Shown here: positions 4,342 through 39,211 of the stretch, in pieces
Layout of the letters: each line of letters begins with the position of its first letter
Numbering within the stretch: position 1 is the stretch's first letter
From: Escherichia phage JLBYU37
Strand: one strand, 5' to 3'
Length of the DNA stretch: 45,011 nucleotides
Sequence record: NC_073054.1
Translations under genes and position numbers: made by a program
Notes under the pieces: model-generated
What the model was told of the DNA's origin: nothing
Database searches by the model: none
Seen by the model: the letters and a program-made list of their open reading frames with translations, nothing else

Positions 4342-5766
4342 ATGGCACGTTTCCGACGTCGCGAATATCAGAAGTTGATAACCGCGTTCATCCTCAAGCA
4401 TAAGCGCTGCAATATTTGGGCGACAATGGGGTCGGGTAAAACCGGCGCGACCATGTGGGCGCTGAATAAAATGTTCCAGACTGGCATCCTGTCCGACCAG
4501 GATGACCGCGTACTGGTGCTGGCCCCGCTGCGCGTTGCGTCCGGTACATGGCCCCCGGAACAGGAGAAATGGCGCTTCCCAGCCTTGCTGGTAGTAGACG
4601 GCACTGGGCCAGAGAAGGACCGCATCGCTGCGCTTGAGAGCGACGCTAACGTGGTTTGTATTAACTATGATGTAGTTGAGTGGCTTGTTGAGTATTGCGG
4701 CGACGAGTGGCCCTTTACGGTCGTGGTTGCCGATGAATCCACTAAGCTGAAAGGCTATAGAAGCAAGCAGGGAAGTAAGCGCGCCCGTGCGCTGGCAGCG
4801 ATCGCACATAAGCACGTCAAGCGCTGGATTAACCTGACTGGCACACCCGCACCAAACGGACTGAAAGACCTGTGGGGTCAGACGTGGTTTGTCGACGGTG
4901 GCGAACGCCTCGGCAGTAGTTATAAGGCATTCACAGACCGCTGGTTTATTAGCAAGCCGGTTAAGCCTGGCAGCTTCACGACGCAGCACGCCCCGCTTAA
5001 GAACTCCGAGAAAGAAATACAACAACGACTGTCCGACGTGTCGCTAACCGTTGATGCGGCTGAATACTTCGGGTGTGACAAGCCAATCTATACGCCGGTT
5101 GTTGTGGACCTGCCGAAAAAAGCACGCAAGATTTATGACCAATTCGAAGCGGAGCTATTTGCCGAACTGGAAAGCGGAACGGTGGAGGCGGCGAACGCTG
5201 CTTCGAAGACTATTAAGGGCCTTCAGCTTGCTTCCGGGGCCGTGTATAAGGTCGACGAAGACGGCGAGCGCACCGACGAATGGGTGAAAATTCACGACGC
5301 TAAACTGGACGCGCTGGAAAGTATCGTGGAGGAGTTGAACGGCGCACCGTTGCTCGTTGCCTACCAGTACAAGCATGATCTGGCACGTCTCAAGAAGAAA
5401 TTCCCGCACGGCGTTGCGTTGGGTAAAGGTAAGCAGGGCAATAAGGATATGGAAGCGTGGAACAGGGGCGAGATCCCCATCATGTTTGCACACCCGGCAT
5501 CGGCAGGTCACGGCCTTAACTTGCAGGATGGAGGACACCACCTTGCTATCTTTTCCGACACCTGGAACTATGAGCACTTTGCGCAGATCGTGGAGCGTAT
5601 CGGGCCTGTCCGCCAGATGCAAGCCGGGCACCCTCGTCCAGTATTCGTCTACATTATCCAGGCGCGCGGCACACTGGATGAACTGGTCGCCGAACGTCGC
5701 GACAGCAAGCGTGATATTCAGGACGACTTGATGGAATACATGAAAGCTAAAAAGGCGCGCAAATGA
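4342..5766 (+). CDS. SNF2/DEAD-like superfamily 2 helicase
   Basis: Track ORF 4252-5766; likely start ATG 4342 (MARFRRREYQ) with AGGCGGA RBS. Walker A-like MGSGKTG, motif II ADEST, C-terminal helicase domain. Confidence 0.85.
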   Translation: MARFRRREYQKLITAFILKHKRCNIWATMGSGKTGATMWALNKMFQTGILSDQDDRVLVLAPLRVASGTWPPEQEKWRFPALLVVDGTGPEKDRIAALESDANVVCINYDVVEWLVEYCGDEWPFTVVVADESTKLKGYRSKQGSKRARALAAIAHKHVKRWINLTGTPAPNGLKDLWGQTWFVDGGERLGSSYKAFTDRWFISKPVKPGSFTTQHAPLKNSEKEIQQRLSDVSLTVDAAEYFGCDKPIYTPVVVDLPKKARKIYDQFEAELFAELESGTVEAANAASKTIKGLQLASGAVYKVDEDGERTDEWVKIHDAKLDALESIVEELNGAPLLVAYQYKHDLARLKKKFPHGVALGKGKQGNKDMEAWNRGEIPIMFAHPASAGHGLNLQDGGHHLAIFSDTWNYEHFAQIVERIGPVRQMQAGHPRPVFVYIIQARGTLDELVAERRDSKRDIQDDLMEYMKAKKARK

Positions 5767-13640: not shown

Positions 13641-13676
13641 AAATAACCTCGTTAAAAAGGGGCCGAAGCCCCTATA

Positions 13677-16600
13677 CTACCAGCTACCAGTAAGCTCACC
13701 AATCTGCACGCGGAGAACGCCGTTTCCGTCCTTCACGCTGATTCTTGTGTTCGTCTGTTTCATCCCGCCGCCGCTACCGGTGCCCAGGTTGATAAACGTT
13801 CCATCTTTCCCTAAGCGCCAGCCGCGCGTGCTGCCGTCGTAGTTATTCGATTGCAGCGTGTCTGTTATCTGCGCGAAGTTGATGGACGCGTTCTTGATGC
13901 GTGCCGTGTCGATATACACCGCGCCACCGTCCACAATAAACGCAGACGACAGCGTCCCATTGGACGGATGCATGATGTAGAACTGGTCCGCCTTGAACGC
14001 AATACGCGATTTAACCGCGTTGCCAGACGTCACAACGGAAAGCTGCATACCCGCATCATAATAAGTCCCGTTATATGTCACGCCAGCCTTAAGGCTATAC
14101 GTGGCGCTACCACCAGAGTGGTTAAACGAGGACGTCATCTTCTGCTCGATAGCGGCGGACTGCTGACCGAACTGTGTAGCGACCTGGGTCTTATATTCCG
14201 CCAGCGCTCCCGCCACGTCTGCGGTTGCCGTTTGTACCTGCTGGATGGCGGCTTCCTGTTCCCCGAACTTAGCGGCAACAGTTTGCTGGTACTGGGCGAA
14301 CGCTTGTTCCTGTGTGCTCTGCGCGGTCTGCAACGTGTGGATCGCAGCTTCCGCGTCATCAAGTCGCGTGCCGATCAACGTCTCCAGTTGAGCGACCGCC
14401 TTGTGGGCGTCCGCCGCCACGTTATACGCGACCGAGATTTCCGCATAAATACCCTTGTACTCGGCGCGGGCGTTGAACAATTGCTGCGCGTCGGTGAGCA
14501 TCGCCTCGTAAATACCCTGCGGGATCGTGTTGATTGCTTCCTGGAAGCGTTTACCATCCTCGGAAGTCAAGAACTCGTCATCAAGCCCCTTCATGTACTC
14601 GTCAACTTTGTCACTCACCTGCCCTTCAAACGGGGCCGACCAGTCCGACAGGTTGCCGATTTTATCCGCTACACGGGCGCGCAACTGCTGGTAAATTCCG
14701 AACTCCAGCGATGTTTGCGCATACTCCGCCCCCGGATATGGGACGTTGGTAAGGAATTTCCATTCAGTCTCACCGGTCTTGCGCACTTCAAGCTCGGTGT
14801 ACGAGATATCAGTAGCGGCGTTGTTGTGGTTCCACTTCCACAAGATCTGGTGAAGGCCCGAAATAGCGTTGGTGATGATTGGTGCGTTAAGCCCACCGAG
14901 ACGACCTTCCACCGGCGTGATGGCGGACGACACCCACGGAGATGAAATCTCGCCCATACCGATCGCGCGGACGCGTGCCTGGTAGTTACCGGAGAACACG
15001 TTGGGGATGTGCGCCCCATTCGACGCCGTGCGTGGGATATTCACCCAGTCGTTACCCCACTGGATTTCCATATTCTGAAGGCTGGTACGCCTCCACTGGA
15101 TTTCATACACCACGGCATCCTTCACCGGAGGGAATACAATATCCACGTTGGTGATTAGCTGCCCTTGCGATGAAATCTGCGACGGGGTGATGGTCACGGA
15201 TTCCGGCCCCTTCATTACCCCGTCAGGCACTTGCGTAAAGATACCCGGATCAAGGCGCGCGCCATTATCAACGGCATCATACTTGCTATCGTTGTACTCA
15301 ATCCCGCGCACCGAGAAAGTGCTCGTAGAGTCGTCATACTCCAGGTCGGTGATGCGGAATTTCTGCAACTGGATATCGTCGCCATCAACGCAAAACGGCT
15401 GGTCAGGAATAGGGTTGGCGTCCAGTGCGGTTTTTAGCGTTACCTTGTTGCCGTTGACGCTGGCGATCTCGCGAGTCTCCACATTACCGCTATCGGTGCG
15501 TACCAGGAACTTATCGCCAGGGCGGAATGTGATTTCGCTGTCCGTGTTCAGCACGGTACGAGTTCCGGGGTCCGACAACAGTCGACCGCCACGCGTCTCA
15601 AAACCGCCAGAAATGTTTGTATCCGCGATCGCGACTACGCTACCGGGAATAAAGAATAACCCTTCCATGCCAACTTTAAAGCTAACTTGCTGGTCAAGCT
15701 GGTTGGAAATTAGCGCCCAGTGCCCGCGACGCTGCGCTTCAGATTCACGCGTACAGCCGATCGCCGTAATATCGAGACGGTTAATCTTATGGCGGCGTAC
15801 CAGTTCGACACGTTGCCCCGTTGCGATAGCATCTTCATAGTGGTTCTTCGGGTTGCCGTATGCTACTGCGAACGTGGAGTACCGAGTTTTCTGGCTACCG
15901 GACGCGTAGTCGAAGCGCCCATCAATAACCGAGGCGTTGGTGATAGTGTGCGACACTGCTGCGACCGGTTGGTCACTGACGATATTCAACATCTGGTTGC
16001 CCCACCAGGTCATTCCGGCGAAGATGGCGGCTAAATCCTTAAGCACGGTCCAGGCATCCGTCTGTGACTGAATGTACATATCATTCTTAAAGCGGATTTC
16101 TCGGCCACCGTTGCCGTCGCTGACCAACTGATCGCAGCGCTGCGCAATCTGGTAGAGCGCGTATCGGTTTAGCATTTGCGGTTTGATACGCCGACCGAGG
16201 CCGAAGCGCTCAGTAATACAAATATCGTACCAGTGCCACGCAGGGTTATCCGTCCATGCGCGTTTAAACGTGCCGTCCCAGTCCCCGGAATAGGTATGAT
16301 TGATCGGGTCGTAGTTGTTCGGTATTAGAACTTTGCGACCTTTGCACTTAATGGACACGCGAGGGATGTTCTGGAACGCTTTGGCGTCGAACTCCACAAA
16401 CAACAGCGCGGTTAGCGGGTAACGCAGGCGGGCGTCAATAATCTCAGTGATGGACTGCACCCGGATATCATTAACCACTTTCGCCGATGTGGAGTCTGCC
16501 GTTATGCGGTGCACCTCCACGCGCCAGCCGGTGTTAACGTTCGGAGGTAATTCGATGCGGTGGTCGCGCTCATATAGCGACATTGTTTTACCAACGGCGG

Positions 16601-19828: not shown

Positions 19829-19863
19829 AAAAAAGCCCCCACGTTGTAGTGAGGGCCATTTTA

Positions 19864-22506
19864 TCATCGTTTGTAAAGTACACCACCCGGTTTCGTCGCC
19901 TTCACGATCTCGGCCTTGACCGACTCGGTGATTTGCTTTCCGAACGCCTGCGCGGTGCGCGGGTCTGGACCGCTAACACTGGTATCCGTCTTACCGGTCC
20001 CCATGTTAACGTTGGTCGTTACAATCATTCCCCCGACACCGCCTGCCGCGGCAACGCCAAGTTTACCGTCTGGCCCGCGCTTAAGCGGCATGATGGCCTC
20101 GGGGCCAGCCTCCCCCATCAATCCTGCGCCCTTAGCGAACGCCTGGACGCCATAACTGAAAAAGGTGGGCTGGCTTACCACTTGCCCCGAATAGGCCGCG
20201 AGGTTGCCCCCTGCGTACGCTCCGCCGTCCGCATTCTTAGTGAGGCCGGAGAAAATAGCGCCGAACAATCCGTTTTTGCCGCCGTCACCGCCGAAAGCGC
20301 TAACGATGGACTTGAACGCCTGCGAGGTAGCCAGCTTTATTAATTCGCTCAGAATGGACTTAACCATATCTTTTGCGTTCAGCTTGCCAGTCTCGAAAAA
20401 CTCGTTCATCGTGTCCTGCATAGCGCCGAACGTGAATTTTGTGAGTGACGTCATCTGCGTATAGCCGTTACCCATTTCATCAACACTATCCTTAAGCCCG
20501 CGGCTGAAGCCATCCCATAGCGAGGCGTTAGCACCGGTCTGTGCTTCCTGCACTTCGCGCAGCTTAGACACCGCCAAATCAATATCGGTATCGTTAGCGC
20601 CCACCCGCTTCAGGCGATCAATTAGCTGCAATTCTTCGCGCAGGTTAGCCGCTTCGCGAGTGGAAAGCGCATATCCCGCCGCGGTGGCTTTTAGCTCGGC
20701 GTTCTGGTTCTTGATGAATGCATCGACCTGGGCGTGTGCTTTGATCTGCTTCTCTTTCGCGTCCAGCAATTTGGCTTCTTCGACGATCTGCTCGCGTACC
20801 GATTTAACCGCCTCGAACGCCGCCGTTTGCTGCTTTTCTGCTGCCGTGAGTGCGCGCTCCTTGCTCGCGGTGATTAACTGCTCATTATCGGCAATCAGCT
20901 TGTTCAGGGACGCTTGCGCGCGTTGCGTGCGGGTCTGCGTCGATGCGTTGGCTTCGATCTGCTTTCCAGACTCACGAAGCTGGGCTAATTCGCTTCGCGC
21001 GACTTCCAGCATTTTCAGCCCGGCATCGACTCGAACTGCCGCCGCTTTCTTCGGCGCGGGGTCTTTGTAACGCTCGTTGACCTGCTTCACCGCCTCGGCT
21101 AGTTCTTTCTCGTTAATAACACCGCGCTTATTCAGCAAATTTAGGCGGGCGATCTCGTCGGCTCGCCGCTTCGCGTTGGTTGCGTACTCCTTCTCAAACG
21201 CGGCGCGGTCGCGGGCGGCGCGGTTTGCCTCCTCGTTCGCCTTTGCTGCTTCATCCGCGGCGCTGGCGCTGTCTCGCTCGGCACGGTTGCGAAGGGTGAG
21301 CGACGCTACTACCTTTTCCTGGGCGACCAGTTCGCTGTAAAGCATGTTAATACGCGCTTTCTGCGCTTCGGTCATCACCCCACCGGCAGCGTTTACCGCC
21401 CTCATCTCGGCATAGTACGCCGTGGTCATGCGCTGCAAGGACTCACGCGCTTTCATCTCGGACTCATTCGAGGACTGCGCGCGGCCCACATCCAGGATGG
21501 CATCCCACATAGATTTAGCTGCCGATGTAACTACGTTCATCGACCGCTCAAGCGTACCCATGTTGGACTTTACCTCATCGGTCATGCTGGAGAACGACGC
21601 AGCGGCTGTTTTGTTAGCCAGAGCAACCGCGTCCGTTTCACGCCCCATATCTACAAGCGATTGCACCTGCTGGATCTGCGCCTCGGTAACGACATGATAC
21701 TTATCCGCCAGCGCACGCAGTCCGCCCACTGGGTCGTTCGACAATTTTGAGATGGATTCAACCACGTCAGAGATCGGCTGATTAGACGCCTTCGCGAAGT
21801 CATTCACAACCTTCGCCAGCGCGCCGAAGTCCGCCCCCGCTTTCACACCCGCCGCCGCCAGCGCCTGGATTGTGTCACGCGTCTTGCGGAATGATCCGCC
21901 CATGCGCTCGGCGTTCTCGGATAGCACCAGGATCTGGTTTGCCGTTAGGCCGGAAATGTTACCTGACAGCGCCAGCGTCTTGTTAAGCGCTGCGACCTGG
22001 TTCTCTGCGCGGGACGTAATTGCTACGCCCACGCCTAACGTTGCCGTTACCGCAGCAAGGCCGATCCCAACTGGACCGAGGAAGCCAGCAACATAACGCA
22101 GAGTGTTACCCAATCCACCGAACGCCCCAGTTAGCTGCGGTAACTGCTGAAGCATAACGCGGTGTACCGGCATCCCCATCTCAAGCGTAACTGCGATATC
22201 CTGTAACTGGAATGCGGCGTTACGCGAGGCAAAGCCCAGGTTTTTAGTCGACATGCCTAACCTGTTGGCGAGTCGCTCCTGTTTCGTCATGCCATCGGCG
22301 GCGCGCTGCGATTCGTTTGCCAGCTTTTCCATTCCGCCCGCGGCGTCACTCGTCACCTTTTTGGATTTGCCGAGGGTGTCGTTTAATTTCTTAACCTTGT
22401 TTTCTGTGTTCTCGGATTTCTGTGCGAAGGAGTCCAGCACAGTATTTGCCGTTCTGATTTGTGCAACATCAGCCTTTAGCGTGATGCCTGCTGCCTGATC
22501 TGCCAT
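19864..22506 (-). CDS. tail tape measure protein
   Basis: 880 aa, alanine-rich coiled coil, Gly-rich hydrophobic C-terminal segment; GGGGA RBS; downstream of G/GT. Confidence 0.85.
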   Translation of the reverse strand: MADQAAGITLKADVAQIRTANTVLDSFAQKSENTENKVKKLNDTLGKSKKVTSDAAGGMEKLANESQRAADGMTKQERLANRLGMSTKNLGFASRNAAFQLQDIAVTLEMGMPVHRVMLQQLPQLTGAFGGLGNTLRYVAGFLGPVGIGLAAVTATLGVGVAITSRAENQVAALNKTLALSGNISGLTANQILVLSENAERMGGSFRKTRDTIQALAAAGVKAGADFGALAKVVNDFAKASNQPISDVVESISKLSNDPVGGLRALADKYHVVTEAQIQQVQSLVDMGRETDAVALANKTAAASFSSMTDEVKSNMGTLERSMNVVTSAAKSMWDAILDVGRAQSSNESEMKARESLQRMTTAYYAEMRAVNAAGGVMTEAQKARINMLYSELVAQEKVVASLTLRNRAERDSASAADEAAKANEEANRAARDRAAFEKEYATNAKRRADEIARLNLLNKRGVINEKELAEAVKQVNERYKDPAPKKAAAVRVDAGLKMLEVARSELAQLRESGKQIEANASTQTRTQRAQASLNKLIADNEQLITASKERALTAAEKQQTAAFEAVKSVREQIVEEAKLLDAKEKQIKAHAQVDAFIKNQNAELKATAAGYALSTREAANLREELQLIDRLKRVGANDTDIDLAVSKLREVQEAQTGANASLWDGFSRGLKDSVDEMGNGYTQMTSLTKFTFGAMQDTMNEFFETGKLNAKDMVKSILSELIKLATSQAFKSIVSAFGGDGGKNGLFGAIFSGLTKNADGGAYAGGNLAAYSGQVVSQPTFFSYGVQAFAKGAGLMGEAGPEAIMPLKRGPDGKLGVAAAGGVGGMIVTTNVNMGTGKTDTSVSGPDPRTAQAFGKQITESVKAEIVKATKPGGVLYKR

Positions 22507-22569: not shown

Positions 22570-22890
22570 TTATTCAGTCTCAGACGAGGGGAGCCATTGA
22601 CCCCCGTCTAGTCTGAAAGACTGGGGTGCTATCCCGCTGTCCCGATCGGCTGAAAACCGCGGCAGCACTGGCGGGGATGGGGTGCTGTCCCGTTTTGTCC
22701 CGCCCCTTGTTTGTCCCGCTTTCTGTCCCGCTTACTTTATGCAATAAAACTGCATAGGTATGCACATTTACAGGGCGTGACAAAACGGGACGTCCCGCCT
22801 GTCCCGCTTTGAGTTTATGCAATGAAAGTGATTAGATATGCGGTTTTACAGAGGCGGGACAAAACGGGACGTCCCGCCTGTCCCGCTTCA
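22570..22890. repeat. non-coding iteron-rich element, copy 1 (between GT chaperone and tape measure genes)
   Basis: 22570-22756 is ~90% identical to 39025-39211. Multiple GTCCCGC/TGTCCCG half-sites; 31-bp direct repeat GACAAAACGGGACGTCCCGCCTGTCCCGCTT at 22779 and 22857; 12-bp palindrome CGGGACGTCCCG at 22786-22797 and 22865-22876. Confidence 0.75.
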
Positions 22891-23582: not shown

Positions 23583-23636
23583 TAAAAAAGGGGCCGTGCT
23601 GGCCCCATATTAACACTCGCTATTTAAGCGACCAAA

Positions 23637-35545: not shown

Positions 35546-35606
35546 ATTAATTTACTTCCAGATTGAGATGACCTGGATGCAATATACCACGGTACTGGGG
35601 CAATAA

Positions 35607-35633
35607 ATAAAAAAGCCCGGAATTAACCGGGCT
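35607..35633 (-). terminator. rho-independent terminator after the lysis cassette
   Basis: Minus strand: AGCCCGG-ttaatt-CCGGGCT followed by U-rich tract. Confidence 0.55.
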
Positions 35634-35640
35634 TGATTGT

Positions 35641-35824: not shown

Positions 35825-36316
35825 TTATGCAGCGTTACGACCGATTCGCTCGGCAACGTCCCACTGCTTACCATCAAACAACGCCTGTCTGCCGATTGCA
35901 CGGCGTACCAGACCCTTCAGCACTTCACCGCCTTGCTTGCGGAACTGCGGCAGAGTAGCACGGACCTTCGCCCAGTCGCCCAGGCGGACCGCATCATCGA
36001 AATCATTCGCGACGTCATCCGGTACGATCGGACCCGGACCGGCGTTGATTACCAGGTCCACCAGCGCGTCGAATTGCGCCTGGTTAATGCTCGGATGTGC
36101 GTATTTGTTCACCCAGTCCTCAGCATACGCCACATCGCGCTTGAGCAGTGCCAGCGCTTCCTCGCGGGTAATGCTTCGAGGCGGATTAGTGCCGGTATGA
36201 CCATAACCCCAAGTGTACAGGCCGCGGGCCTGCTCTTTCTTGGTCGCGAAATACGGCACCGGGCTGAAAGCCTCCCATGCTGCCGTAAATCTCAGACCGT
36301 TGTCACTGAATCGCAT
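35825..36316 (-). CDS. endolysin (phage lysozyme, GH24-like)
   Basis: 163 aa; N-terminal catalytic signature LRFTAAWEAF...YTWGYGHTG; immediately downstream of two holin-like genes. Confidence 0.75.
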   Translation of the reverse strand: MRFSDNGLRFTAAWEAFSPVPYFATKKEQARGLYTWGYGHTGTNPPRSITREEALALLKRDVAYAEDWVNKYAHPSINQAQFDALVDLVINAGPGPIVPDDVANDFDDAVRLGDWAKVRATLPQFRKQGGEVLKGLVRRAIGRQALFDGKQWDVAERIGRNAA

Positions 36317-36548
36317 GTTTTACCCCATTCAAAACAGCATTACGCAGTGTGCGCAATGCAAACAGCCAGATTAACGCGGTCCAGGTGGCGTCAGATACGT
36401 CTCCCGTTTGCAACAGACCGACAATACAGGTCATTGCCGTTAGCAGATATAACACCCGACCGAAGAAGCCATCCTGGACGGACGGCGCATACACGTTAAA
36501 CAGGGACGAAGCCCCTATGATAACAAACAACAGGACGGAGATAATCAT
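36303..36548 (-). CDS. holin/antiholin-like membrane protein
   Basis: 81 aa, about three predicted TM segments; ATGA coupling to the upstream holin. Confidence 0.55.
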   Translation of the reverse strand: MIISVLLFVIIGASSLFNVYAPSVQDGFFGRVLYLLTAMTCIVGLLQTGDVSDATWTALIWLFALRTLRNAVLNGVKHAIQ

Positions 36549-36835
36549 TTTGCGCCCCCCGGAAGTCGGAACGACTCAATAGTCTCCCTGATCCGGGCGG
36601 CTATTGGCATCCAGAAGATTGCAGTTACGAAGCCCAAACCGGCGACAGTGCGCTCGCCAGATAAGCCCGCCCACTCGGCGATAGCTGGCGCACCAAATAT
36701 GGCGCACAGGAAGCCAACTACGACATATAAAACGAAGTTCAACGGCCCTTTCGTTGCCTCGCCATGAATGCGTGCGCCTACGAAGCCACCAGCAAGACAC
36801 GCAAGGGCGAATAACCACTCGTTTAGCTTATCCAT
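36545..36835 (-). CDS. holin-like membrane protein
   Basis: 96 aa, three hydrophobic helices, charged C-terminus; first gene of the lysis cassette. Confidence 0.55.
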   Translation of the reverse strand: MDKLNEWLFALACLAGGFVGARIHGEATKGPLNFVLYVVVGFLCAIFGAPAIAEWAGLSGERTVAGLGFVTAIFWMPIAARIRETIESFRLPGGAK

Positions 36836-36870
36836 AAAAAAGTCCCAGTAAGTTTTATCTCACTGGGACT
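36836..36870 (-). other. stable hairpin plus U-tract abutting the holin start codon
   Basis: Minus strand: AGTCCCAGT-12 nt loop-ACTGGGACT followed by UUUUU and then AUG 36835; no Shine-Dalgarno. Confidence 0.45.
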
Positions 36871-36887
36871 ATATCACGCTTGCATAA

Positions 36888-37187
36888 TTAATCGAAAATG
36901 GACCACTTGCCGACGCCTTTCCACTCCCATCCACTCGACCGGACGGCCTCGAACATCCGGCCCCCTATCATATCCCGATACCACAGCCACCACATGCGCA
37001 ACCTGGTCGGGTGCTCCGTGATTCCACGGCGCTTGTATACCTCGAACGTCATCCGGGTAATGCTGGCAGCTTCCACCGCAGGCCATACCAGGAATACCCA
37101 TATTGCGCCCAGCACTCCCGTAACCAGGCATAACATGCTGACCATACCAAACCAATAAATCACATCATGAATCATAATCTGCCCCAT
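36888..37187 (-). CDS. membrane protein (95-99 aa)
   Basis: N-terminal TM helices (VIYWFGMVSMLCLVTGVLGAIWVFLVW); alternative start ATG 37175 coupled to the upstream small ORF. Confidence 0.45.
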   Translation of the reverse strand: MGQIMIHDVIYWFGMVSMLCLVTGVLGAIWVFLVWPAVEAASITRMTFEVYKRRGITEHPTRLRMWWLWYRDMIGGRMFEAVRSSGWEWKGVGKWSIFD

Positions 37188-39024: not shown

Positions 39025-39211
39025 TTATTCAGTCTCAGACGAGGGGGGCCACTGACCCCCGTCTAGTCTGAAAGACTGGGGTGCTGTCCCGCTGTCCCGC
39101 TCCTCTGGAAGCCGCGTCATCCGGGGCGGGACGGGGGTGCTGTCCCGCTTTGTCCCGCCCCTTGTTTGTCCCGCTTTTTGTCCCGCTTACTTTATGCAAT
39201 AAAACTGCATA
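39025..39211. repeat. non-coding iteron-rich element, copy 2 (beside the primase-helicase gene)
   Basis: ~90% identical to 22570-22756; GTCCCGC half-sites at 10-16 bp spacing; inverted GCGGGAC...GTCCCGC pair; followed by A/T-rich stretch 39190-39235. Confidence 0.75.

Follow-up and report, generated by a model that had tools for sequence, protein, structure and literature searches.

A terminator-type hairpin flush with the holin start codon of Escherichia phage JLBYU37 and its candidate overlap with a promoter and a ribosome-binding site

Results

Genes and Features at the Locus

The subject of this study is a hairpin that precedes a holin gene in a stretch of DNA of 45,011 nucleotides (nt) from Escherichia phage JLBYU37 (sequence record NC_073054.1). 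This entire stretch is referred to as the window throughout, and all genes and features of the window described below are, unless stated otherwise, those of its minus strand. A 2.7-kb stretch around the hairpin matched 155 phage records in GenBank, mostly with 90-95% identity and nearly all of them from Escherichia or Shigella phages of the genus Dhillonvirus, and the same stretch did not match any of 5,426 complete E. coli genomes searched. An origin of the locus from a prophage or from the host was therefore rejected, and the window is essentially one near-complete Dhillonvirus genome. Dhillonviruses are HK578-like virulent siphophages of 42-47 kb.

The order of genes was read from the annotated relative JLBYU60 (NC_073052.1, 92% identical). 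In the direction of the minus strand of the window, a divergent promoter region comes first and is followed by gam, a gene for a primase/helicase and seven small genes, then by two holin-like genes and the endolysin gene and, after these, by a small open reading frame (ORF), an exonuclease gene, the terminase gene and the head and tail genes. The hairpin lies precisely in the gap that separates the last small gene of the replication/early block from the first holin-like gene. The former (36888..37187) codes for a predicted membrane protein of 99 amino acids with unknown function (phrog_2531) and terminates with a TAA codon at 36890..36888. The latter (36545..36835) encodes a protein of 96 amino acids that falls into phrog_2359 ("holin") and is annotated as "holin-like class II" in relatives; its identity as a holin is a family assignment only, with no hit in Pfam. 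Its AUG (36835..36833) is confirmed as the translational start by homology, in that M-D-K opens the protein in three genera. The second holin-like gene (36303..36548; 81 amino acids; phrog_2508, "holin") has a GGGGGG Shine-Dalgarno (SD) sequence and is joined to the first by an ATGA overlap, and the endolysin gene (35825..36316) specifies a protein of the Phage_lysozyme family (PF00959). A further predicted terminator (35613..35634, -14.4 kcal/mol) closes the cassette, and an extended -10 sequence for the exonuclease gene, TGGTATATT (35589..35581), comes next. Terminators thus flank the lysis cassette on both sides, the holin hairpin on one and the structure at 35634..35613 on the other. The latter scores as a terminator on both strands, with a poor T-run on the plus strand. 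In the divergent relative LM40P1, approximately 30 nt have been inserted or have diverged behind the terminator closing the cassette, and an exactly conserved CCGTGGTATATTG follows.

Anatomy of the Hairpin and Features of a Terminator

Read from 5' to 3' on the minus strand, the order of elements is the TAA codon that ends the upstream gene, 17 nt, the 5' arm AGTCCCAGTGAG, the loop AUAAAA, the 3' arm CUUACUGGGACU, the sequence UUUUU and the AUG of the holin gene. According to both the sequence and the predicted fold, the 5' arm (AGTCCCAGTGAG/AGUCCCAGUGAG) is located at 36859..36870, the loop at 36853..36858 and the 3' arm at 36841..36852, such that the hairpin extends from 36870 to 36841 with a stem of 12 bp (including six G-C pairs and one G.U pair) and a loop of 6 nt. 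An earlier note on this DNA had described a stem of 9 bp with a loop of 12 nt; the hairpin that it reported is real, while the dimensions have to be corrected. The uridines at 36840..36836 and the AUG directly behind them are exactly as described in that note. This U-tract (36836..36840) constitutes both the putative terminator tail and the entire spacer between stem and start codon. The run comprises six T residues when position 36841 is included, the first of which is paired with the A at the foot of the stem.

When 81 nt around the element were folded, a z-score of -5.4 was obtained and none of 200 shuffled sequences folded as well. With -19.3 kcal/mol, the stem alone is the most stable among all terminator-like stems in the window, and of the six inverted repeats with a length of at least 12 nt that are present in the 45 kb, it is the only one that forms a true stem-loop. 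No ORF covers positions 36836..36873 on either strand. A resemblance to the cyanobacterial small RNA NsiR1 that was returned by Rfam was dismissed as the generic likeness of terminator hairpins (28.1 bits versus a gathering score of 39), and a site for RNase III was set aside because a stem of 12 bp is too short for this enzyme by established knowledge.

The hairpin displays the properties of an intrinsic terminator. Its stem and loop are of suitable size and stability, the tract UUUUU(U) at 36841..36836 follows the stem directly on its 3' side, and the structure lies in untranslated DNA 17 nt past the stop codon of the last gene of the early block. The U-run is specific for the transcribed strand, as the stem is followed by ATATCACG on the opposite strand. 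In a scan for the terminator consensus the element ranked second, and it already carries the annotation "terminator" in the GenBank records LR999870 and MK373790 (CS16, WF5505). With regard to the published literature, the paper on Dhillonvirus EE09 contains nothing about promoters or terminators, and that on fBC-Eco01 offers software predictions only. More distant relatives of the holin point in the same direction: The holin genes of the Pantoea phages LIET2 and MED16 are preceded, at a distance of about 50 nt, by unrelated terminators of the classical type, with a -10 element between terminator and gene, and in Klebsiella phage KLB22 a different stem, a U7 tract and the ATG follow each other in the same flush layout. 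A terminator in front of the lysis cassette is therefore a recurring theme in this holin family. On the basis of the sequence features we consider it very probable that the hairpin of the window is a functional terminator.

Accessibility of the Holin Start

The sole SD-like element in front of the holin gene is GGGA (36846..36843), which forms part of the 3' arm and precedes the AUG by 7 nt. The statement of the earlier note that an SD sequence is lacking was therefore nearly right and needs to be amended only by this weak motif. On JLBYU60, the duplex of the holin leader with the anti-SD sequence was calculated at -3.9 kcal/mol compared with a genome median of -5.95 kcal/mol, and the holin start proved to be the least accessible of all 62 annotated starts, with a probability of being unpaired of 0.16 versus a median of 0.56 (positions -15 to +3). 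At other terminators in the genome, a distance of 15-20 nt, which includes a normal GGAG, separates the structure from the following ATG. Since the AUG of the holin gene abuts the U-tract, the hairpin is predicted to bury the ribosome-binding region as well, and as in phage lambda S, a stem-loop that includes the SD sequence is found directly upstream of a holin start. Judging from the folding predictions, this occlusion of the ribosome-binding site (RBS) is likely to matter. The proposal of the earlier note that the structure is an intrinsic terminator or a translational gate holds in all sequence-based and comparative respects, namely anatomy, annotation in relatives, position at an operon boundary, least accessible start and a homologue that sequesters its SD sequence (see below), and we conclude from these that the hairpin is almost certainly an element of the terminator type that also occludes the holin start.

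Set against the occluded start of the first holin gene, the SD sequence of the second holin-like gene (GGGGGG, -9.4 kcal/mol) is among the strongest of the genome. The two holin-like membrane proteins may be made in very different amounts, perhaps as a pair of holin and antiholin.

Conservation and Structural Covariation

The element is kept in 155 of 155 Dhillonvirus records in GenBank and its identity is at least 95% in 144 of them. Among 15 ordinary Dhillonviruses, the spacer of 52 nt that contains the hairpin exhibits 0.017 pairwise differences per site versus 0.17-0.23 at third codon positions of the flanking genes, i.e., it is 10-13 times less variable than flanking synonymous sites. Variation within hairpin and U-tract is confined to the loop in these phages (A/C at 36858 and A/G at 36856), and the sole further variable site of the spacer, 36887, is located just past the stop codon. 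The 17 nt upstream of the stem are as frozen as the stem itself, although they are dispensable for a terminator.

A homologous hairpin was found at the same place in Kagunavirus K1G and Jerseyvirus LSPA1, both members of the Guernseyvirinae, where it precedes a holin that is approximately 46% identical and begins with the same M-D-K. In the Kagunavirus and Jerseyvirus version, the 5' arm carries the anti-SD sequence CCUCC, the 3' arm contains a perfect GGAGGA SD sequence, the start codon is UUG and the tail reads UUCAUCUU instead of U6. The loop of the K1G hairpin comprises 22 nt, which is atypical for a terminator. Features common to Dhillonviruses and the Kagunavirus/Jerseyvirus group are a CCAGU/ACUGG core of the stem and the sequence CGTGnTAT ahead of it; the start codon of the latter group follows 6 nt past the stem. 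An outer helix CGUGA:UUAUG was considered as the cause of the conservation of CGTG and was rejected, because it is not kept in register in Kagunavirus. A clean U-tract is restricted to Dhillonvirus and KLB22-type phages. In the literature, we found no description of a holin-leader hairpin in the Guernseyvirinae.

When the stems of Dhillonvirus and Jerseyvirus were anchored on CCAGU/ACUGG, eight identical pairs, four compensatory pairs and no broken pair were obtained. Pairs were counted on an explicit structural alignment, as the arms were out of register in the cross-genus MAFFT alignment. In the divergent lineage LM40P1/L015, a U-A pair is replaced by C-G, accompanied by a bulge. A metagenome scan and a second viral scan did not yield lineages beyond those of Dhillonvirus, LM40P1-type, Kagunavirus/Jerseyvirus and KLB22-type phages, and the covariation therefore rests on few independent comparisons. 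The fact that G.U is tolerated argues for pairing in RNA and not for a palindrome in DNA. From the SD-pairing hairpin of Kagunaviruses and Jerseyviruses and from the covariation, it follows that the trait conserved across genera is a hairpin which hides the ribosome-binding site of the holin gene.

Two side observations concern the Guernseyvirinae. In Kagunavirus contigs (L099 and L076/L123), a single stem pair was changed from A-U to G.U in two cases and from A-U to A.C in one, the latter being the sole broken pair in any of the sequences; these single-step variants may be intermediates toward a G-C pair. Furthermore, K1G, LSPA1 and additional Kagunavirus and Jerseyvirus sequences contain the palindrome TTAGGA-TAAT-TCCTAA at a distance of about 30-45 nt upstream of the holin start, near the -35 position and just upstream of CGTGnTAT. 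Its arms do not show covariation (TTAAGA variants occur), and it looks more like a protein-binding site or a -35 region than like an RNA helix.

An Extended -10 Motif at the Foot of the Stem

The sequence TGATATAGT (36868..36876) at the foot of the stem resembles an extended -10 promoter element (TG, n, TATAGT). It overlaps the stem, which begins with the last 3 nt of the motif. The motif matches TGnTATAAT in eight of nine positions and combines TGn with a hexamer that has T-12, A-11 and T-7. At the same position, Kagunaviruses and Jerseyviruses carry TG[G/C]TATCCT, which varies only at the free n and is preceded by the common CG (hence CGTGnTAT). With TGATATAGT retained in Dhillonviruses and in LM40P1, key positions are thus conserved across relatives and free ones are variable. 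KLB22 has TACTAT without TG at the corresponding place.

Transcription usually starts 7-8 nt from a -10 element. With this standard spacing, the start site is predicted at about 36861/36860, which is inside the 5' arm, and an RNA originating from the candidate promoter would for this reason be unable to form the hairpin. The accessibility of the holin start in the window was predicted as 0.66 for such a promoter-derived RNA versus 0.25 for a read-through RNA; corresponding values were 0.44 versus 0.24 for K1G and 0.49 versus 0.24 for LSPA1. Based on these sequence comparisons and predictions, we are mildly inclined to regard the embedded promoter as functional.

Related Modules on the Late Strand

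Nine of the 39 matches to TGnTAnnnT on the late strand of JLBYU60 fall into intergenic DNA, which makes up 6.4% of the genome. Motifs at promoter positions are, in addition to TGGTATATT after the terminator of the lysis cassette, TGTTATAAT before the terminase gene, TGATACAAT before the tape-measure gene and TGATAATAT before the scaffold gene. The window and the divergent LM40P1 share six conserved extended -10 sites on the late strand, including that at the holin gene, and at most of the six the flanks have drifted or gained insertions. Changes within the conserved sites hit weakly constrained positions, e.g., TGTTATAAT is replaced by TGATATAAT. Owing to this conservation amid drifting flanks, the extended -10 class, to which the copy next to the holin gene belongs, probably represents the real late-strand promoters of the phage.

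The motif abuts the stem at four of the 24 terminator-like sites on the minus strand compared with 0.09 expected, and none of 20,000 shuffles that preserved local composition reached four. Controls on other strands and in K1G yielded 0/21, 0/16 and 0/30, i.e., 0/67 altogether. Three of these four modules are retained in LM40P1, and the stem differs in one of the three. The complete holin layout is found once more after the tape-measure gene (19834..19866), where TGATAAAAT (19866..19858) is followed by a hairpin (19857..19834) with GGGGG in its 3' arm, by U6 and by AUG 19828 of a minor tail protein; the PHROG 9922 profile places the start of this protein at the same AUG. After the major tail gene (23590..23615), TGTTAATAT (23615..23607) abuts a terminator hairpin (23606..23590) and a normal GGAG SD sequence and ATG follow. 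In the remaining module (13658-13682), TGGTAGTAT ends at the foot of a terminator stem.

Several further observations on these late-strand regions are added here. The annotated ATG of JLBYU60 gp11 (start 8281, window approximately 26430) is part of the loop of the terminator GGGCGGGCTTATGCCCGCC, and GGAG and another ATG are found after the U-tract. The start of gp20 in the same genome (14824, window approximately 19867) is annotated upstream of the hairpin, while the PHROG 9922 profile begins at the AUG past the U-tract. Both starts in the RefSeq record of JLBYU60 look wrong owing to terminator hairpins, and they exemplify how gene callers misplace starts beside structures of this kind. The octamer TGTCCCGC, a plus-strand motif, is present in 13 copies versus 2.3 expected (0 of 100 shuffles reached 13). 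Twelve copies form two clusters in long intergenic regions, one at 22696-22886, upstream of the promoter-like site of the tape-measure gene, and one at 39085-39186, just past the primase/helicase gene. Part of the octamer forms CGGGACGTCCCG palindromes, and repeats of a similar kind are present in LM40P1. The repeats may serve as iterons or be bound by a regulator, possibly with relevance for the control of late promoters. Finally, the annotated spanin genes of JLBYU60 (gp05/gp06, 4623-5064) and K1G (4663-5158) are found within the head gene region, at a great distance from the genes for holin and endolysin, and lysis functions are therefore split over two transcription modules in Dhillonvirus and Kagunavirus.

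Discussion

The best single explanation for the locus is, in our view, a composite of terminator, promoter and RBS, to which we assign an even chance of being correct. According to this explanation, a Rho-independent terminator would close the early unit (gam, primase/helicase and small genes) just before the lysis cassette. The same hairpin would bury the ribosome-binding region of the holin gene, and read-through RNA would be a poor template for holin synthesis because the weak SD sequence GGGA is part of the 3' arm and the AUG lies only 5 nt from the stem. The lysis genes would be expressed mainly from the sigma70 extended -10 promoter TGATATAGT at the foot of the stem, the transcripts of which would start inside the 5' arm and hence would neither form the hairpin nor be terminated. 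Their leader of 25-26 nt would be open and would consist of the loop, the 3' arm acting as SD sequence and the U-tract acting as spacer. The hairpin would thereby serve as a filter on transcript origin, with early RNA being stopped and silenced and promoter-derived RNA being translated.

A number of points weigh against this composite. The foot of the stem (A-U, G-C, U-A) is poorer in G+C than in textbook terminators, and since Kagunaviruses and Jerseyviruses have the tail UUCAUCUU and not a clean U-tract, termination may not be the ancestral role of the element. In the literature on Dhillonviruses, Kagunaviruses and Jerseyviruses we found no mapped RNA 5' or 3' ends; an RNA sequencing study of Kagunavirus K1B4 is too coarse, comes without end mapping and does not mention the holin. 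A credible -35 element was not detected, the best candidate matching at three of six positions, and a scan for two-hexamer promoters did not return the site. The conservation of the -10 motif is partly explained by the stem, because three of its nine bases lie in the latter. The association of motif and stem is inflated by two of the four modules, in which the genuine stop codon of the preceding gene is part of the motif (TGA, 19866..19864; TAG, 13679..13677). In LM40P1 the predicted gain in accessibility is small (from 0.19 to approximately 0.28-0.30). Moreover, a constitutive sigma70 promoter for the holin gene would require that lysis be delayed by other means, e.g., by a weak RBS or by gene dosage.

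The main rival is a plain leaky terminator or attenuator, which we regard as unlikely though still to be taken seriously. In this case, the majority of early transcripts would end at the hairpin and the lysis genes would be expressed from the read-through fraction only, the holin would be translated inefficiently via GGGA and the U-rich tract with participation of ribosomal protein S1, and the -10-like motif would be non-functional or would have another role. The evidence for a terminator is the same as for the composite, and the missing -35 element, the omission of the TGATATAGT site by the promoter scan and the stop codons that partly account for the motif at two sister sites would find a simple place here. 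Several terminators inside operons, e.g., those after the major capsid and major tail genes, separate structural genes and likewise need read-through or bypass, and a low output of holin would suit the situation in lambda, where lysis time is set by the translation rate of the holin (bioRxiv 10.1101/2025.05.14.654169). However, a leaky terminator leaves unexplained why 13-17 nt upstream of the stem are invariant, why CGTGnTAT recurs at the same position in Kagunavirus and Jerseyvirus, and why motifs of this class have been retained at further promoter-like positions although the flanks drift. In addition, read-through RNA presents the least accessible start of the genome, so that genes required for release would be handicapped twice.

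An improbable explanation is that the element primarily works as a translational gate in the manner of the lambda S stem-loop and sets the timing of lysis by limiting the access of ribosomes to the SD sequence and AUG, with the U-run as spacer between SD sequence and AUG or as a site for S1, and with termination being incidental or weak. The precedent is documented, as a stem-loop upstream of lambda S controls access of ribosomes to the SD sequence (bioRxiv 10.1101/2025.05.14.654169), and the homologous hairpin of Kagunaviruses and Jerseyviruses, which pairs GGAGGA with CCUCC in front of a weak UUG start, lacks a clean U-tract and in K1G has a loop of 22 nt, would fit well, as would the rank of the holin start as the least accessible of 62. 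On the other hand, Dhillonvirus and KLB22-type phages have conserved a run of U6-U8 directly behind a strong stem, which corresponds to the tail of a textbook terminator, and a stem of -19 kcal/mol at a distance of 5 nt from the AUG, combined with nothing better than GGGA, would nearly abolish translation instead of tuning it. The lambda S-type dual start (Met1-Lys2-Met3) was not found: The holin N-terminus reads M-D-K-L-N-E-W and there is no nearby second start in frame. More distant relatives have classical terminators and not RBS hairpins before the holin gene.

The earlier note had compared the element with terminator-controlled late operons in which read-through is regulated, and this part of its proposal is not supported. 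A switch by antitermination in the fashion of lambda Q/tR' or N, in which a factor of the phage would cause late read-through and thereby turn on the lysis genes and possibly also downstream late genes, would be in line with the position of the hairpin at the boundary of early and late genes and with the series of terminators on the late strand, both of which are reminiscent of lambdoid late operons, and several small upstream genes have no known function. Yet, searches of the genes between 35.6 and 42.7 kb against Pfam and PHROGs, several small ORFs of unknown function among them, did not reveal a match to Q-like, N-like or other antiterminator families. Minimum free energy (MFE) folds of longer upstream context retained the terminator hairpin and contained no competing antiterminator structure, though a dedicated search for one was not run; by eye, upstream complementarity to the 5' arm is limited to 5 nt (UGGGA). 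Processive antitermination would also be unnecessary, since a conserved extended -10 element belongs to every downstream module, and transcripts from the candidate promoter would lack the terminator altogether. We thus regard such a switch as very improbable. An element acting at the level of DNA, i.e., an operator palindrome or cruciform, or a chance inverted repeat without function is hardly credible, for although the inverted repeat overlaps a promoter-like motif as is often the case for operators, G.U (G.T) pairs that are conserved or newly arisen suit RNA pairing, arms of 12 bp with centres 18 bp apart are unusual for helix-turn-helix dimers, and a chance repeat is excluded by a U-run that is confined to one strand, by the extreme conservation and by a z-score of -5.4.

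Returning to the composite of terminator, promoter and RBS, the sister sites raise the idea that Dhillonviruses, and in part the Guernseyvirinae, reuse a composite module of about 50 nt as a repeated design unit, which we consider possible but would rate somewhat below an even chance. The order of such a module would be extended -10 element, 5' arm (comprising discriminator and start site), loop, 3' arm (SD sequence), U-tract and AUG. It would be complete at the holin and minor tail genes and partial at two further late-strand terminators. Such a unit would shield the lysis cassette against early transcripts and would not need a regulator of its own.

The supply of holin sets the time at which the host is killed. 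Dhillonviruses and Kagunaviruses are common candidates for therapy and are represented among the coliphages of the BASEL collection, and to our knowledge their gene regulation is essentially unstudied. If the composite explanation is true, a virulent phage without a recognizable late regulator insulates its lysis genes from early transcription by means of about 50 nt, and a very compact insulator would become available for synthetic biology that unites terminator, promoter and RBS in one hairpin. If only a plain terminator is present, the feature is an ordinary one that has already been annotated in public records.

Comparison with Known Systems

The hairpin shares with intrinsic terminators of E. 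coli and its phages a G+C-containing stem, a short loop, a U-run and a location after a stop codon at an operon boundary. It differs from them in that the U-tract runs into the AUG without a separate leader and SD sequence and that a -10-like element overlaps the foot of the stem.

As in lambda S, a hairpin is situated directly 5' of a holin start and contains an SD-like run of G residues in its 3' side, and the CCUCC:GGAGG pairing in Kagunaviruses and Jerseyviruses is a particularly clear case of an SD-sequestering hairpin. In contrast to lambda S, a dual start of the Met-Lys-Met type with production of an antiholin is absent, the holin belongs to an unrelated family, the stability of the stem is much higher and a U-tract is present in Dhillonvirus. 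The lack of homology to lambda S follows from family assignment (no hit in Pfam; phrog_2359 in PHROGs) and not from a direct comparison with lambda S. The holin hairpin thus works like the lambda S stem-loop but is not a member of that class.

With the lambda Q/tR' system (pR', qut) the locus has in common that a terminator is inserted between earlier transcription and lysis genes on the same strand. In lambda, the terminator is located well downstream of the late promoter, so that every transcript meets it. In the window, the -10 motif lies at a distance of 0-3 nt from the stem and transcripts from the candidate promoter would lack the terminator; the -10 element ends 3 nt inside the stem, and a start 6-9 nt further on, as predicted from standard spacing, would remove the 5' arm.

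The leaders of E. coli pyrC and pyrD provide another parallel. Depending on which transcription start is used, a 5' hairpin that masks the SD sequence does or does not form in these leaders. Likewise, inclusion of the 5' arm in the RNA is predicted in silico to decide about sequestration of the RBS at the holin gene. The difference resides in two transcript origins, the upstream operon and the embedded candidate promoter, in place of neighbouring starts that are sensed via nucleoside triphosphate pools, and in a hairpin that would also be a terminator. Taken together, the element appears to be an ordinary terminator in an unusually compact overlap of terminator, candidate promoter and RBS, which is not unprecedented.

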